IMG/VR virus record: IMGVR_UViG_2740892234_000020
Length of the DNA: 36,453 nucleotides
Strand: one strand, 5' to 3'
DNA from: a virus
Lineage: Duplodnaviria > Heunggongvirae > Uroviricota > Caudoviricetes
The position numbers were made by a program. Shown piece after piece: positions 21,001-30,000 of the stretch (positions are counted from its first letter, which is position 1; each line of letters opens with the position of its first letter).

Positions 21001-24000
21001 CGCAGCAAATTTGCAGAGATATCGAAAAATTATGGTTATTTTATGCCGAAGCAGCAGGGACTTTCTCTGAAAGAGCTTCAGAAGGGGGCCAGCAACGTAG
21101 CGGCGGACGCGATCAAGAATGGCGGTAATGCTCAGGCTGCGGTGGATGAATATTATGCTGCGACTGGTTCACAACCGCATCAACAGAAAATTCAGCAACA
21201 AAAACTTCAGCAACAGGTTATCAACTGGGCGGGAGATGATCCTGATAAGCTGTCATTTGCCAGAAATGTAGCGGCCCGTCAGCCTGAAATGCTGGAACCT
21301 CAGAATCAGAAATTGCTGGAGAACGGGTATGCGAATTTTCTCCGTATTCAAAAGGCCAGGGGGGAACAGGCCAGAGATGAAAGTGCTTCATCTGCATCTC
21401 AGTTTATCCGTGGACTGAAACAGAATTACGCCCAGTAATTCACGATATTCCATTAATACCATTTCCTGATGCCCGGCCATTGTGCCGGGTTTTTTTATGG
21501 AGTCTGTATGGCCTATTCAGAGGAACAGCGTCCTGAGGCGCAACTCGGTAACCAGAATCGTAACAGCCTGAACATTCAGCAACCCGGCGAAACTGACAGC
21601 TATGAAGCATTTTTCTCTGATCCGAATCGCTGGAAGGATAACAGTACGTCGTTCAGCCTGGGCGATGTATTGCCAACAATGGGTAAAGGTTTCGCCCAGT
21701 CCGTCCGGGGAACAGGGGAAATGGCCCGTGGACTCGGTGATGCGATGATTCAGAGCCCGGTAAAAACAGGGGCGCGTATTTTAAATGAGTTCAGCCGTAT
21801 GGGGCTGCCGGGTGTCGCAACTGTGCAGGATATTTTTGCCGGTGGCAGCAGGGGGGCTGATGAGGTCATCGATACCCTGCCTGATGGCAAAAACGCGGTT
21901 ACTGATACTGTCGGTAAAGGTCTGAAGGCAACCGGTAAGGCTGTCAGTGATGGTGCCAAAGCCACTGATGAATGGCTGACCGGTAAGATGTCGCCGGGTG
22001 CAGTTCGTGCGCTGAATACGCCGATGACCGAAGGCTATAATGATTCTGCGGTCTGGGTGGCGAAGGGTGTAAACCTGATTGGTGCGCTTGTACCTGATAT
22101 GGTTGCTGGCGGTGTGGCTAGAAAGGTGGGTGATGTCACACTGCGAAAAATGCTGACCGCCGGGCTGGAGAAAAAATACATCGCGGCAGGGATGCAGCCG
22201 GAAAGAGCCACGGCACTGGCAGCAGAAGCTGTCGATAAAAAAATGCCGGATTTATTCCAGGCGGGCCTGATCACCCATTCCACTGTAAGTGCACAGGGGC
22301 AGAGTGCAATGGCGGCAGCAGATGCTGTTCTTAATGCTGATTACTCTGAGCTGGCGCAGTCACCGAAATTTCAGCAGACGTTTTTGTCCATTGACGCCGA
22401 CCCGCAGCACGCACAGCTTACTGATCGCCAGAAAATGGATCTGGCAAAAGAGCGTGTTGCCGATGAGGTGCGCGCGCAGCTGGCAACCGATCCTGAATTG
22501 CTGGCTGTGAATGCCATGGCGGCAAAACTGGGTGACGCACAACTGTTTAATCTGGTGACACGAGGCACAGCGAAGACCGTTAAAAGCGGCATTGTCAGAA
22601 ATGCCACGGAACAGGGGGCGATTAATGCGGCGCAGGGCGGCTATTCACGCTATCAGGAAAACACGGCATTGCGTGAGACCGCCGGAATGGGTGTGTCACC
22701 ATGGGAGGGCGTGGCTGACGCAACGATCGAAGGTGCAGCCTTTGGTGCTGCGATGGGGGCTCCATTCGGTGCGGTTGCCGGATATCGTGGCAGACGTCAG
22801 GCCGCAGAAGAAACCGCCATGCGTGATGCTGAAACCGTGCAGCAGGACGACGCAGCCCCGCAACCAGAATCTGTTGATCCGGTGGCGCAGCAGCGTGAAT
22901 CCATGCAGGGCATGAATCGCGAGCAGCTTCTGGAGCAGTATGCTGATGCGGATATGGCAACAGAGGGTGACGCATCCGCAGCTCATCGCCGGGAAGCTGC
23001 CAGCCAGTTGTTGAATGAACTGGACGAACAGACGAAGCGACAGGCTGTGATGAATGAGCTGAAGGCGAAGCCGCGTTCTGAACTGCTTGAGGAATACCGC
23101 AGACTCAGCCAGAAAGAGGGGCGCACCGAGACTGAAGAACAACAGTTTCAGGCAATACGAGAAGTCATTCGCCCACAACAGGAAGTGACGCCGGAAGCAC
23201 AGTCACAGCCTGAAAATGCGGAGGATGGTAACGGGAGCATTTACCCGACGGTGCGGTTCCGGGACCCGAATGAAGTCCGCATTGAAATTAACGGGAATGG
23301 TGCGTCCAGACCAGCGGAACGCATTGAGAAGGTGCGCCCGGACAACCGTTATTTCACGGATGAGAAAAGCGCCATGGGGAGTGATGTTTTCCGTAATGCC
23401 GCCGCCACCGGCCTGAAACCGTCCGTAGTGAAGAAAGGCGAGAATCAGTATGCCGTTGAAATGGATAATCCTGCGTTCTCTGAAGATGTGGCAACGGAAA
23501 CCATTAACACCCTGGCTGACGGAGAGCGTATTGCTGATGCTGACCCGATGGAGCAGCCCGCGTTCATGCGTGACCCGCGATTCCGTGGTTTCACGGGGGA
23601 TGATACGGAGGTACAGGCCCGCCTTGCCCGTGGCAACGCGCCGACGGCAGAGGAGCTTGTACGTTCACAGATGGCTGAAGGTGATGCCGGTCCGACAGCA
23701 CAGGAGTTAACTGAGCGTCCACGCCTGCCCGCTCCCGGCGATATTCATCCCGGACAGGGATATCCGTTACCGGGAGAAGTGGCGCGTACGCCGGATGAAA
23801 ATCAGGCCGGACGTGGTGGTCGTTTTACCACAACCGGTGAGGTTAAGGGCCAGAGTTTCCAGAAAGGACAAGCTCCGGCACCGGAAAACGCCGCTGGTCG
23901 CCAGGGGGAAACACTCGAGGGTGACATGGTTCGTCGTGGTCTGCCGTCACCGGATGCGCAGAACGCGACAGCACCGGTACGTGAAGGGCTACCGGCTCCT

Positions 24001-27000: not shown

Positions 27001-30000
27001 ACCGGGTTAACGTTGTACCGGAGAGAAAAATTAAGCCGCGATAACCTTCTGCACAGAGGGCTCCAATTGCCCAAAGGGGAACATTCTTATCGCGGCTCTG
27101 CGGATAAAATACTCTATCCTGAAGATATTCGCAAGGGGCCGTATTACTCCCGTACCAGCAGTCTGACACCGGAAGAGACAATTGCATCGCGTTTTGTGCG
27201 CCAGATGCAGGATAAATTCCAGGTGCTGAAAGCTGTTCAGGAGAATATCCGTAAAACTGGCGGCAAAGTGGACGACAGTAACAACGCTTATATGGCGGAA
27301 GAACTCTTCCACGGGAAGGCGGAAAACGACCTGAACGTGATGAAGGAGCGCTACGTTCAGCCACTGGCTAAATTACTGGCGGACTACAAAATTGCGCAGG
27401 CCGATCTGGATGAGTACCTCTACGCCCGTCACGCGCCGGAACGTAACGCGCATATCGCGAAAATCAACCCGAAAATGCCGGACGGCGGTTCGGGGATGAC
27501 CAACGCGGAAGCGGCGGAAATCATGCAGCGTGTACGTAACAGTGGCAAACAGGCACAGTATGACCGTCTGGCAGGGATTATTGACGATATGCTGGCCCGT
27601 CGCCGTGAGCTTATCCGTGAGGCCGGACTTGAAGAGAACGGTGTGGTGGATGCCTGGCAGAACGCCTACCGTTACTACGTTCCCCTGAAAGGTCAGGATG
27701 TTGACGGTGTGGTGTCACTGCCCCGTACAGGTAAGGGCTTCACCATCGGCGGACGTGAAAGCAGGCAGGCCATGGGGCGTGCATCCCGGGCACAGTCTCC
27801 GTCCACTCAGGCGATACAGGACCTGAGCGAATCGCTGATCCGCCATCGCAAAAACGAAGTGGGTAACGCCTTCCTGAAACTGGTGCAGGATAATCCCGAC
27901 AAGGATTACTGGCAGGTATTCACCGATGACAGACCGGATACCATGCGGACGATTGCAGAGCGCAAGGACCAGGAAACTGGTGAAACCATTCGCGAAGTTG
28001 TCGAACGCCCTGTACCGATGGCAATGATGGCAGACCGGTACTTCACCACCAAAAAGAACGGCAAAACGTACTACATCAAACTCCATGATCCGCGCCTGAT
28101 GCGTGCGATGAAGAGTATGGGACCGGAAACCAGCAATGCCTTTGTTCGTACGCTGGGGAAAGTTAACCGCTTCCTGGCAACGGTGAACACGTCGTATAAC
28201 CCGGAATTCCTGGTCAGTAACTTCATCCGTGACGTGCAGACGGCGGTGATGAACCTGAAGGCGGAGCAGGGAAGGAGCGACGGTAAACTGAAAGGGCTGG
28301 ATAACTTATCCGCCCTGGCTGTGGTGAAAGACAGCCGTTCTGCCATGTCAGCCGTATACGCCAGTCTGCGTGGTAAAACCCTCACGGGAAAAGGTGCACA
28401 GTGGCAGAAGGTGTGGAAAGAGTTTGTTGAGGACGGAGGGAAAACCGGCTGGTTTAACATGGGTGACCTTGAAGGCCAGCAGAAGGAAATGGATCGCCTT
28501 GTCTCACTGGCGAAGGGGGGATGGAAAGGCCAGAGTATCGGTGCATGGAATTCGTTCCTTAACCTTGTCGAGGATGCCAACGGTGCGGTTGAAAACGCTC
28601 TGCGTCTTTCTGCCTATAAGCACGCCCGTGATGCCGGTTTGTCACGCCAGCAGGCGGCGTCTCTTGCCAAAAACATGACGGTGAACTTTAACCGTCGTGG
28701 TGAGCAGGGGGCGCTGATGAATTCGCTGTACATGTTCGCCAACGCCAGCATTCAGGGAACGGCAAATCTGGTGAGAACGCTCGGACATCTTAATGGTGAG
28801 GGACCTTTACTGGAGCGCCTTCGCTGGAAGAATCTGAATGTTCCGCAGAAAATCGCGCTTGCCGCTGTGGGAGCAGGTTATCTGCTTGGCTCGCTTAACC
28901 GCAGCGTGGCGGGTGAGGATGATGACGGGGTTAACTGGTATGACAAGGTGCCGTCTCATGTGAAAGAGCGTAACCTCGTCATTATGAAATCGGTGTTCGG
29001 GGGCAAGGCCGGAGAGTACTGGAGTATTCCTCTGCCTTACGGGTACAACGTTTTCTTCCTGCTCGGGCATACTGCTGAAGGTGTGGCGGCGGGTGACCTG
29101 ACGGCGTCCCGTGCTGCCGGTAATGTTGTTGGTGGTGTGCTTGGTGCATTCAGCCCGATTGGCAGTGAGACGTCGGAAACACTGTCCGGGGCATTGCTGA
29201 AAAATGCAGCGCCGACCATTCTGCGTCCGTTTGCGAACCTTGCCATGAATGAAAACTTCATGGGGGCGCAGATTTACCAGGAGAACATGCCGTTTGGTAC
29301 ACCAAAACCTGACAGCCAGCTGGGAAGACGTTCAACGCCAGAAGCGTACAAGGCGTTTGCATCCTGGCTGAATGCGTTCTCAGGTGGCAGCCAGTACCGT
29401 CCCGGCGCGGTGGATATCACACCGGAATCGCTGAAATTCTGGATTGACTATATCTCCGGAGGGACAGGGCGCTTCATTTCCAAAACCACGGATGCGGCGG
29501 TGAAATCGCTGAATGGTATTGATATACCGGAACAGCAGGTGCCCTTCCTGGGGAAAATTTCGGGGGAGGTGATGCCGTATGCAGACCAGCAGAAGATGTA
29601 CGACCGGATGACAGAGATTGCGCAGTATCACGCAGAGCTGAAGAGTCTGACCGGTGCAGAAAGAACGGCGTTCATTGACGAGAACAACGGAAAATTGTCG
29701 ATGAACGGGCTTATGCAGGATACCCGGAAGAGACTGAAGGATTTGCGTAAACAGCGTGATGCCATTTACGCCGACAGTACTCTCAGTCTGGCGCAACAGT
29801 CGGCGATGGTGAAATCGGTAGAGCGGGATATGAAAATTGCCGTGGATCGGTTTAACCGCGAGTACAACAAAAAAGTGGGAGTGGATTAACAGAAATGGCC
29901 CCGTACGGAAGTGCGGGGCTGATTAAGAAATAAACACTCATTGACCTGTAATAACCGGAGCTATTAACATATAGTCAGAAGAGCATTTCATGTGATACAG

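Follow-up and report, generated by a model that had tools for sequence, protein, structure and literature searches.

The window analyzed here is the whole of a 36,453-nucleotide (nt) Caudoviricetes record, IMGVR_UViG_2740892234_000020, and represents the late region of a lambdoid short-tailed prophage with terminase, portal, capsid, fiber, and nozzle genes. One giant open reading frame (ORF) of 2,793 amino acids (aa) in this window likely encodes an encapsidated, ejected polyvalent protein of the short-tailed Shiga toxin (Stx) phages of the 933W/Sp5/phi24B type, with delivery modules at its ends and an enzymatic center. The domain content, conservation, and essentiality of the protein are established, as is the presence in virions of a 98.6%-identical homolog. 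The gene, and the main points of a first reading made from the sequence (the initial annotation), were already in the literature, so that the finding is a rediscovery of a described gene. What the present analysis adds, from sequence comparisons, is a homology between the N-terminal module and the N-terminal domain of phage N4 gp50, the assignment of the HEWFH motif to a predicted CLCA_X-type domain, a large predicted zincin-like family with an HExxxH motif that has no Pfam entry, and a map, new here, in which conserved terminal modules appear to surround a swappable center, along with corrections to two published labels. The short-tailed Stx phages are vehicles for the spread of Shiga toxin genes in pathogenic E. 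coli.

The ORF list placed the gene at 21469-29889. The credible start is the ATG at 21508, from which translation gave 2,793 codons and a single terminal stop. This start was preferred because GGAG lies 5 nt upstream of it, because the ATG at 21469 sits at the foot of a terminator hairpin, and because of the N termini of homologs, the distant ones sharing M-A-Y-(D/S)-x-x-Q-(Q)-R-P-E with the giant ORF. RefSeq gives the same length, 2,793 aa, under the name "LPD5/LPD38 domain-containing protein." The gene and its upstream signals are as follows.

21471-21497, plus strand: intrinsic-terminator-like hairpin (GCCCGGCCATTGTGCCGGGT at 21471-21490) and T-run, separating the giant ORF from the 421-aa gene (scan and sequence)
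21499-21502, plus strand: GGAG ribosome-binding site, 5 nt before ATG 21508 (sequence)
21508-29889, plus strand: giant ORF, 2,793 aa plus stop, the same as ECs1242, Sp5 ORF80, and phi24B gp47

A single intact ORF at 21508-29889 with its own terminator and ribosome-binding site, as first described, was thus borne out by translation, the hairpin scan, and the GGAG. Alignment with the homolog of Shigella phage POCJ13 was gap-free over 2,793 aa, with an overall ratio of nonsynonymous to synonymous substitution rates (dN/dS) of 0.18, indicating a real gene under purifying selection. By region, dN/dS was 0.025 in LPD38, 0.05 in the C-terminal region preceding it, 0.07 in the HExxxH domain, and 0.30 in the linker. 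Phage phi191 was left out of this comparison because its record (KF971864.1, 8001-16388) shows the giant gene, along with several adjacent late genes, broken into many short coding sequences. Sequencing frameshifts are a more likely cause of this split than pseudogenization, since 424 of 428 matching E. coli records cover at least 80% of the gene; POCJ13, the one additional record checked, has it intact.

The 8,382 bases are 100% identical to those of VT2-Sakai, Stx1-converting phage, PA-series O157 phages, and E. coli O157:H7 Sakai, in which the gene is ECs_1242 (ORF80) of prophage Sp5. The gene was found in 186 Stx-type phage records, each covering at least 80%, and in 427 of 5,426 complete E. 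coli genomes, and the profile of its PHROGs family (phrog_616) has exactly 2,793 positions. ECs1242/ORF80 of Sp5, the L0121-type gene of 933W-like phages, and gp47 of phi24B are the same gene as the ORF in the window; phi24B gp47 has 98.6% protein identity to its product over the C-terminal 644 aa.

Two published studies bear directly on function. Mondal et al. (2016; PMC5155283) deleted each late gene of Sp5. After deletion of ORF80 (ECs1242) the prophage excised, its DNA was packaged, and heads looked normal; neither plaques nor lysogens were formed, and the defect was rescued in trans. Given the loss of both plaque formation and lysogenization, the giant protein is essential rather than a dispensable accessory effector. 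Bubenchikov et al. (2026; bioRxiv 10.64898/2026.04.10.717836) detected gp47 in purified phi24B virions with 10,962 peptide-spectrum matches (PSMs), second only to the capsid protein and mostly in the top gel slices, and found it missing from the cryo-electron microscopy map. These authors listed LPD5, LPD1, LPD38, and "MuF-C metallopeptidase" domains and proposed an encapsidated ejection protein. In the window, the giant ORF is the final gene of the morphogenesis operon, after the terminase, portal, capsid, nozzle, and fiber genes; this position and the abundance of the phi24B homolog in virions uphold its earlier placement in a virion module.

Domain searches, alignments, and composition divided the protein into the following regions.

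21955-22947, plus strand: N-terminal module, aa ~150-480, homologous to the N-terminal domain (NTD) of N4 gp50 (hhalign, PHROGs, position in relatives)
22945-24207, plus strand: low-complexity Pro/Glu/Gln/Ala-rich linker, aa ~480-900 (composition; lowest coverage in relatives)
24205-25107, plus strand: first part of the cargo cassette, an unnamed conserved region (aa 900-1050) and LPD5 (aa 1051-1200) (Pfam)
25051-25827, plus strand: predicted CLCA_X-type zincin, aa 1182-1440, including LPD1 (NCBIfam, Pfam, structure model)
25915-26547, plus strand: second zincin-like domain, aa ~1470-1680, not in Pfam; HEIIHH at nt 26158-26175 and Glu1607 at nt 26326-26328
26755-27024, plus strand: MuF-C domain, aa 1750-1839 (Pfam)
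27034-29886, plus strand: C-terminal, mainly helical module of ~950 aa, aa 1843-2793, with LPD38 inside it (aa 2476-2681, nt 28933-29550)
28852-28908, plus strand: conserved hydrophobic helix, aa 2449-2467 (family-mean Kyte-Doolittle value 1.33; alignment)

Pfam identified LPD5 (aa 1051-1200, E 6.5e-45), LPD1 (aa 1361-1440, E 1e-23), MuF_C (aa 1750-1839, E 1.3e-17), and LPD38 (aa 2476-2681, E 7.6e-48). These are signature domains of polyvalent proteins (Iyer et al., 2017) and support the view, taken at the outset, that the protein is of this class. The linker is disordered: its residues 701-900 contain 11-12% Pro, are also rich in Gly, Ala, Glu, and Arg, and form the least conserved stretch among relatives, in keeping with the Pro-rich linker previously noticed at aa ~760-880. 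HMMER searches against PDB sequences gave nothing significant with the whole protein (best E 0.81) and a chance-level match to an unrelated protein with profile A3 (best E 0.038).

Translation confirmed the two motifs at their annotated positions, HEWFH at aa 1284-1288 (nt 25357-25371) and HEIIH at aa 1551-1555 (nt 26158-26172). The first falls within a match to NCBIfam CLCA_X (NF041907; E 2.1e-43) that spans aa 1182-1437 and model positions 3-245 of 250, covering both HEWFH and LPD1. As defined by Lenart et al. (2013), CLCA_X is a sister group to the zincin protease domain of CLCA; it is rich in phage and plasmid sequences and has an HExxH...D site. An Asp follows the motif here (HEWFHSLD, nt 25357-25380) and in the relatives aligned (HEW[FW]HALD); in the HExxHxxxD signature of Lenart et al. 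(2013) it stands 3 residues after the second His, whereas here it stands 2.

The second motif belongs to a different family. No Pfam family was found in aa 1440-1750, where M76 came nearest at E 0.12-0.21, and searches of PDB sequences gave no match for this domain. An exhaustive HMMER search of 1.84 billion representatives recovered 430 clusters at E ≤ 0.001, nearly all of them proteins of 1,400-6,000 aa; a shallow word-indexed homolog search with the HEIIH tile returned almost only partial E. coli fragments. When 145 copies of the domain were aligned, Glu1552 and Glu1607 were present in all 145, the second His in 144, and His1551 in 143, with Tyr1525, Ala1536, Asn1538, Trp1589, Tyr1596, and Glu1614 also strongly conserved. 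The consensus for the family, R-H-E-[IV]-L-[GAV]-H-[YH]-G-L, contains an HExxxH motif, which 142 of the 145 members carry. An HExxH reading (HEIIHH) is found only in five Stx-clade sequences, in which it probably arose via a one-residue deletion. Both motifs had been assigned to zincin-type HExxH contexts; both do lie in conserved domains, but the motif of the second family is HExxxH, not HExxH. Glu1607 is 51 residues after the second His, within an "AEE..A..AE" helix. Dipeptidyl peptidase III of family M49 has a hexapeptide HEXXGH motif, of which natural pentapeptide (HExxH) variants exist, and a downstream motif EEXR(K)AE(D); the HExxxH motif and downstream EE/AE helix of the second domain are alike to these at the motif level only. 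In Pectobacterium sp. S5, a 489-aa protein (P0018) has the HExxxH domain and MuF-C alone, without the N- or C-terminal modules of the giant protein, which suggests that these two domains work as a pair.

An AlphaFold2 model of aa 1195-1700, built from a 31-sequence alignment, had a mean predicted local distance difference test (pLDDT) score of 74.7, with both domain cores at 80-97. Each motif was placed at the start of a long helix preceded by two or three strands (three for HEWFH). In the second domain, strands at model residues 329-332 and 337-341 precede a helix (348-367) carrying His1551, Glu1552, and His1555/1556, and a further helix (407-420) bears the invariant Glu1607, with pLDDT 81-96. 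The order of strand and then metal-binding helix expected of a zincin fold is thus seen around the motif in both halves of the model. For the model as a whole, the initial annotation's refuting condition, the lack of a zincin fold at either motif, therefore does not hold.

That the two motifs arose by chance in a non-enzymatic scaffold protein is effectively refuted by this conservation. Composition predicts 0.036 HExxH motifs and two were observed, each in a deeply conserved domain with invariant His, Glu, and downstream acidic ligands, and dN/dS in the second domain is 0.07. The points in favor of chance, namely that the HEIIH pentapeptide occurs in only 5 of 145 family members and that no Pfam peptidase family reaches threshold in either motif region, carry little against this.

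Foldseek comparison of the zincin model with PDB gave nothing significant; N4 gp50 (9pnr) ranked second at E 0.4. The structure-match output for the aa 1195-1700 model is silent on which domain aligned, and matches are therefore not assigned to one domain or the other. Taken together, the two zincin-like domains show resemblance to endopeptidases that act on proteins, such as PPEP, MtfA, and lethal factor; no cell-wall peptidase was among the 60 matches listed. Self-processing or cleavage of host proteins is accordingly favored over peptidoglycan digestion. The phi24B preprint pictures a structural trans-envelope conduit in which a metallopeptidase digests peptidoglycan so that the channel reaches the inner membrane. 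Such a conduit would accommodate a protein that is in the virion yet not resolved there, has precedents in T7 gp16 and the N4 gp50-52 ejectosome, and could draw on the hydrophobic and glycine-zipper segments present. However, the preprint's metallopeptidase is MuF-C, which Iyer et al. (2017) define as a PBECR (barnase/EndoU/colicin-E5/RelE-like) domain, a predicted BECR-fold RNase, and the label therefore appears mistaken. Besides the endopeptidase resemblance, Pfam searches of the whole protein and of tiles at E ≤ 10 found no lytic transglycosylase or lysozyme domain of the T7 gp16 type, and enzyme-like cargo, differing from one relative to the next, takes up over half of the protein, a poor fit to a pure tube. 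We regard the conduit as an unlikely account of the protein.

Both ends of the giant protein are conserved modules. The whole protein was compared with 125 full-length representatives. Among these, the N module always lies within the first ~200 residues, and the region corresponding to aa ~1850-2793 (two unnamed regions, LPD38, and a tail) always ends at the C terminus. Between them, the cassette formed by aa 900-1050, LPD5, and CLCA_X is gained or lost as one unit, the HExxxH domain is sometimes duplicated, MuF-C is variably present, and other insertions reach ~2,800 aa. A partial Salmonella enterica relative (P0012, ~70% identical, aligned to aa ~1440-1690) carries a phosphoribosyltransferase-like insert of ~280 aa between LPD1 and the HExxxH domain, which shows directly that cargo is swapped within the enterobacterial clade. 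Downstream of the hydrophobic helix at aa 2449-2467, the C module has an acidic, conserved DDDG patch as well as a YDKVP motif. By tblastn, this module was found in ~60-kb Vibrio phages (38% identity), Ralstonia phages, and Burkholderia Bcep22 (27%), and more weakly elsewhere.

The N module also has hydrophobic segments and closes with a conserved glycine zipper at aa ~401-425. Aligned from 12 sequences, it matched the N-terminal 1,000 aa of N4 gp50 by hhalign with Prob 96% and E 3.8e-9 over 144 columns, pairing ORF80 residues 258-422 with gp50 residues 295-441. Ten of the 12 N-module homologs matched phrog_2206, "virion RNA polymerase" (best E 2e-27), and 10 of 12 matched phrog_10089, a family of "DarB-like" giants, in its N-terminal part. 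Iyer et al. (2017) reported that the N-terminal region of N4, used as a query, yielded N4-type proteins alone, and the link between the N module and the N4 NTD therefore seems not to have been described before. Bellis et al. (2026) describe the gp50 NTD as lipid-binding and regard it as the part that leaves the virion after gp51 and contributes to the inner-membrane complex; in their description gp50 is a giant beads-on-a-string ejected protein, with a C-terminal domain made up of an HExxH-bearing C1 and a large helical C2. When the 145-sequence HExxxH alignment was compared with C1 from nine N4-like phages, similarity was found at E 4.7e-5 and Prob 68%, confined to the half that runs from strand to metal-binding helix; a word-indexed search with N4 C1, again shallow, gave one match.

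The match of both terminal modules to phrog_10089, annotated "DarB-like antirestriction," and the same annotation on the C-module homologs of Bcep22 and Heva, might suggest an anti-restriction protein that modifies or shields incoming DNA. We consider this very improbable, since the shared parts are the terminal modules and not the DarB catalytic domains, Pfam and NCBIfam found no methyltransferase or helicase domain, no Walker A is present, and PADLOC gave zero matches for the giant protein.

If the giant ORF is an ejected polyvalent protein, infection might proceed as follows. Several copies would be packed, loosely folded, inside the T=9 head, accompanied by the small Gly/Gln-rich products of the genes just upstream. 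Once the receptor is bound and the needle released, these copies would exit via the tail, either before the DNA or at the same time. The N module would then engage the envelope or the inner membrane, in the way put forward for the gp50 NTD, and the C module may serve packaging or channel formation. The enzymatic center would reach the cytoplasm, where the zincin domains could process the polyprotein into its functional parts or cleave proteins of the host, and RNA could be cut by the PBECR domain.

Several considerations weigh against this scheme. Location in the capsid interior, ejection, association with or insertion into the membrane, catalysis, and targets are all steps that we infer. The CLCA_X match scored 148.6 bits, below the NCBI curated whole-protein cut-off of 260, and the region is for that reason taken as a homologous domain rather than a stand-alone family member. 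Similarity between the second zincin and N4 C1 is moderate, and a small HExxxH alignment gave Prob 7% against the 9-sequence C1 profile and 1.7% against a single sequence. The gp47 PSMs smear down the gel, a pattern that may come from processing or from degradation in storage and cannot be interpreted. Finally, heads from the ORF80 deletion fail to bind anti-tail-fiber antibody (Mondal et al., 2016; PMC5155283). This result speaks for a part in morphogenesis, in attaching the tail or keeping it stable, which classic P22-type ejection proteins do not play, and the tail-less phenotype means that a morphogenetic role must belong to any model.

Those authors concluded that ORF80 acts in "tail formation" and, from a COG1483 match, suggested an AAA+ ATPase (Mondal et al., 2016; PMC5155283). 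On that account the protein would power a step of tail formation and would not be an ejected effector, in line with the DNA-filled heads that bind no anti-tail-fiber antibody. A motif scan for Walker A ([AG]xxxxGK[ST]) found none in the giant protein, as the initial annotation had also stated. Pfam and NCBIfam on the whole protein and Pfam on tiles found no ATPase, methyltransferase, helicase, lysozyme, or RNA polymerase (RNAP) family, and PHROGs likewise gave no ATPase family. The protein is moreover abundant in mature virions and absent from the resolved tail and portal structure, and its N module is homologous to an injection domain. An ATPase in place of an ejected protein therefore seems to us a minor prospect, while a morphogenetic role could still coexist with ejection. 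The two published labels for ORF80/gp47, AAA+ ATPase and "MuF-C metallopeptidase," thus differ from the present analyses and find no support in them, there being no Walker A or ATPase family and MuF-C being a predicted RNase. In all, an AAA+ ATPase, a DarB-type enzyme, a peptidoglycan peptidase, and chance motifs were considered and rejected on domain searches, endopeptidase resemblance, and conservation.

For the ejected polyvalent protein that we prefer, the two conserved predicted metal sites and the predicted RNase offer specific residues to mutate, and a trans-complementation system exists (Mondal et al., 2016). With conserved ends around a variable center, the essential morphogenetic or ejection role should also be separable from any host-manipulating or anti-defense role.

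The neighborhood of the giant ORF contains the following features.

18795-21438, plus strand: four Gly/Gln/Ala-rich upstream genes of 218, 148, 83, and 421 aa, equivalents of ECs1238-1241
19911-20162: 83-aa protein with a C-terminal glycine zipper or transmembrane-like segment (AAIGASVGGPVGAVAGAVIGGIAGSLF)
20173-21438: 421-aa protein, equivalent of ECs1241
30350-30424, both strands: convergent terminator-like hairpins just downstream of the giant ORF
33854-34951, minus strand: tyrosine integrase
35040-36077: divergent dusA

The four upstream proteins are probable co-ejected internal proteins. A Gly/Gln-rich run at 18795-21438 had been noted from the sequence, and its phi24B homologs are indeed found in virions: gp51 (260 aa), gp50 (161 aa), an 86-aa ORF, and gp48 (421 aa) (bioRxiv 10.64898/2026.04.10.717836). 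The 83-aa protein is labeled "bacteriocin" in some phage records, and its phi24B homolog was weakly detected in virions; because of that detection it may be a small membrane-inserting ejection protein. Deletion of ECs1241 made Sp5 non-infectious (Mondal et al., 2016; PMC5155283). Its phi24B homolog, gp48, had 1,634 virion PSMs, yet is labeled "Transcription factor?" in the table (bioRxiv 10.64898/2026.04.10.717836). The 421-aa protein showed no similarity to Pfam, PDB, or N4 gp51 and is a candidate periplasmic-tunnel analog.

Further upstream, positions 10143-11795, inside a 550-aa ORF of the tail-fiber region, have a GC content of up to 0.645 and an AT skew of up to 0.48, a composition that fits the collagen-like repeats reported for Sp5 tail fiber ORF67. 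At 550 aa, against 645 aa for ECs1228, the fiber differs from that of Sakai Sp5. Downstream, a putative hok/mok-type toxin locus is expected at ~30900-31120, a position taken by offset from the Sakai annotation only. The block at 31182-36453 holds two DUF1076 (NleG-like) effector genes, a TrcA/bfpT-regulated chaperone gene, and a DinI-like gene, in addition to the integrase and dusA. It is 100% identical in other E. coli genomes, where it is joined to a long-tailed lambdoid prophage (gpJ, Lom, tail fiber), and it looks like a mosaic junction at the dusA integration site.

Among known systems, the phage polyvalent proteins of Iyer et al. (2017) resemble the giant protein in being giant single polypeptides with several effector-type domains and cargo shuffled between relatives, encoded in a late virion gene neighborhood and containing a zincin-like metallopeptidase domain. 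The giant protein differs from them in that neither of its zincins matches the Pfam model of the polyvalent-protein metallopeptidase (one is CLCA_X, the other outside Pfam), and in having the N4 NTD-like module, found here in it and in many other giants. The giants of Bcep22-like (Lessievirus) phages and GP4-like Ralstonia phages have N and C modules in common with it and, like it, are encoded where the morphogenesis module ends; they are 4,500-4,600 aa long with helicase- and methylase-like cargo, whereas the cargo here is LPD5, CLCA_X, MuF-C, and the HExxxH zincin. One of them, the 4,515-aa "DarB-like" protein gp69 of the Bcep22-like phage JC1, was detected as virion-associated through mass spectrometry. 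These phages share portal, capsid, and nozzle (head-closure) homologs with 933W.

The closest parallel in organization is N4 gp50, the N4 virion RNA polymerase (vRNAP). Both proteins have the homologous N module, are giant and invisible in virion reconstructions, and have an HExxH-type zincin-like domain before a large helical C-terminal region; like gp50, the Stx phage protein is probably encapsidated, and each gene directly follows genes for smaller ejection proteins. The giant protein lacks the T7-like RNAP domain of N4 by Pfam, NCBIfam, and PHROGs (beyond the N-terminal match), and BLASTP of the whole protein against gp50 gave nothing significant and no RNAP alignment. Its C module has no detectable relation by hhalign (Prob 0.2%) to N4 C2, a helical region of ~1,100 aa needed for encapsidation, and the upstream 421-aa protein is without similarity to gp51. 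The relationship between the N module and the injection domain of N4 vRNAP makes the N4 ejectosome a useful model for how a 300-kDa protein gets out of the capsid. We put forward, tentatively and at slightly less than even odds, that the giant protein is an RNAP-less relative of the N4 vRNAP, that one ancient delivery framework runs across podoviruses, and that the second zincin represents a large family of early-acting proteases. If so, this second zincin family, which counts ~430 clusters when grouped at 50% identity, would do its work during the opening minutes of infection, on the polyprotein or on host or defense proteins. A framework of N4-NTD-like module, zincin, and terminal packaging module would then be common to Schitoviridae, Sepvirinae, Bcep22-like, GP4-like, and Vibrio podoviruses, with cargo that differs by lineage: RNAP, DarB-type enzymes, or LPD5 with two zincins and a PBECR RNase.

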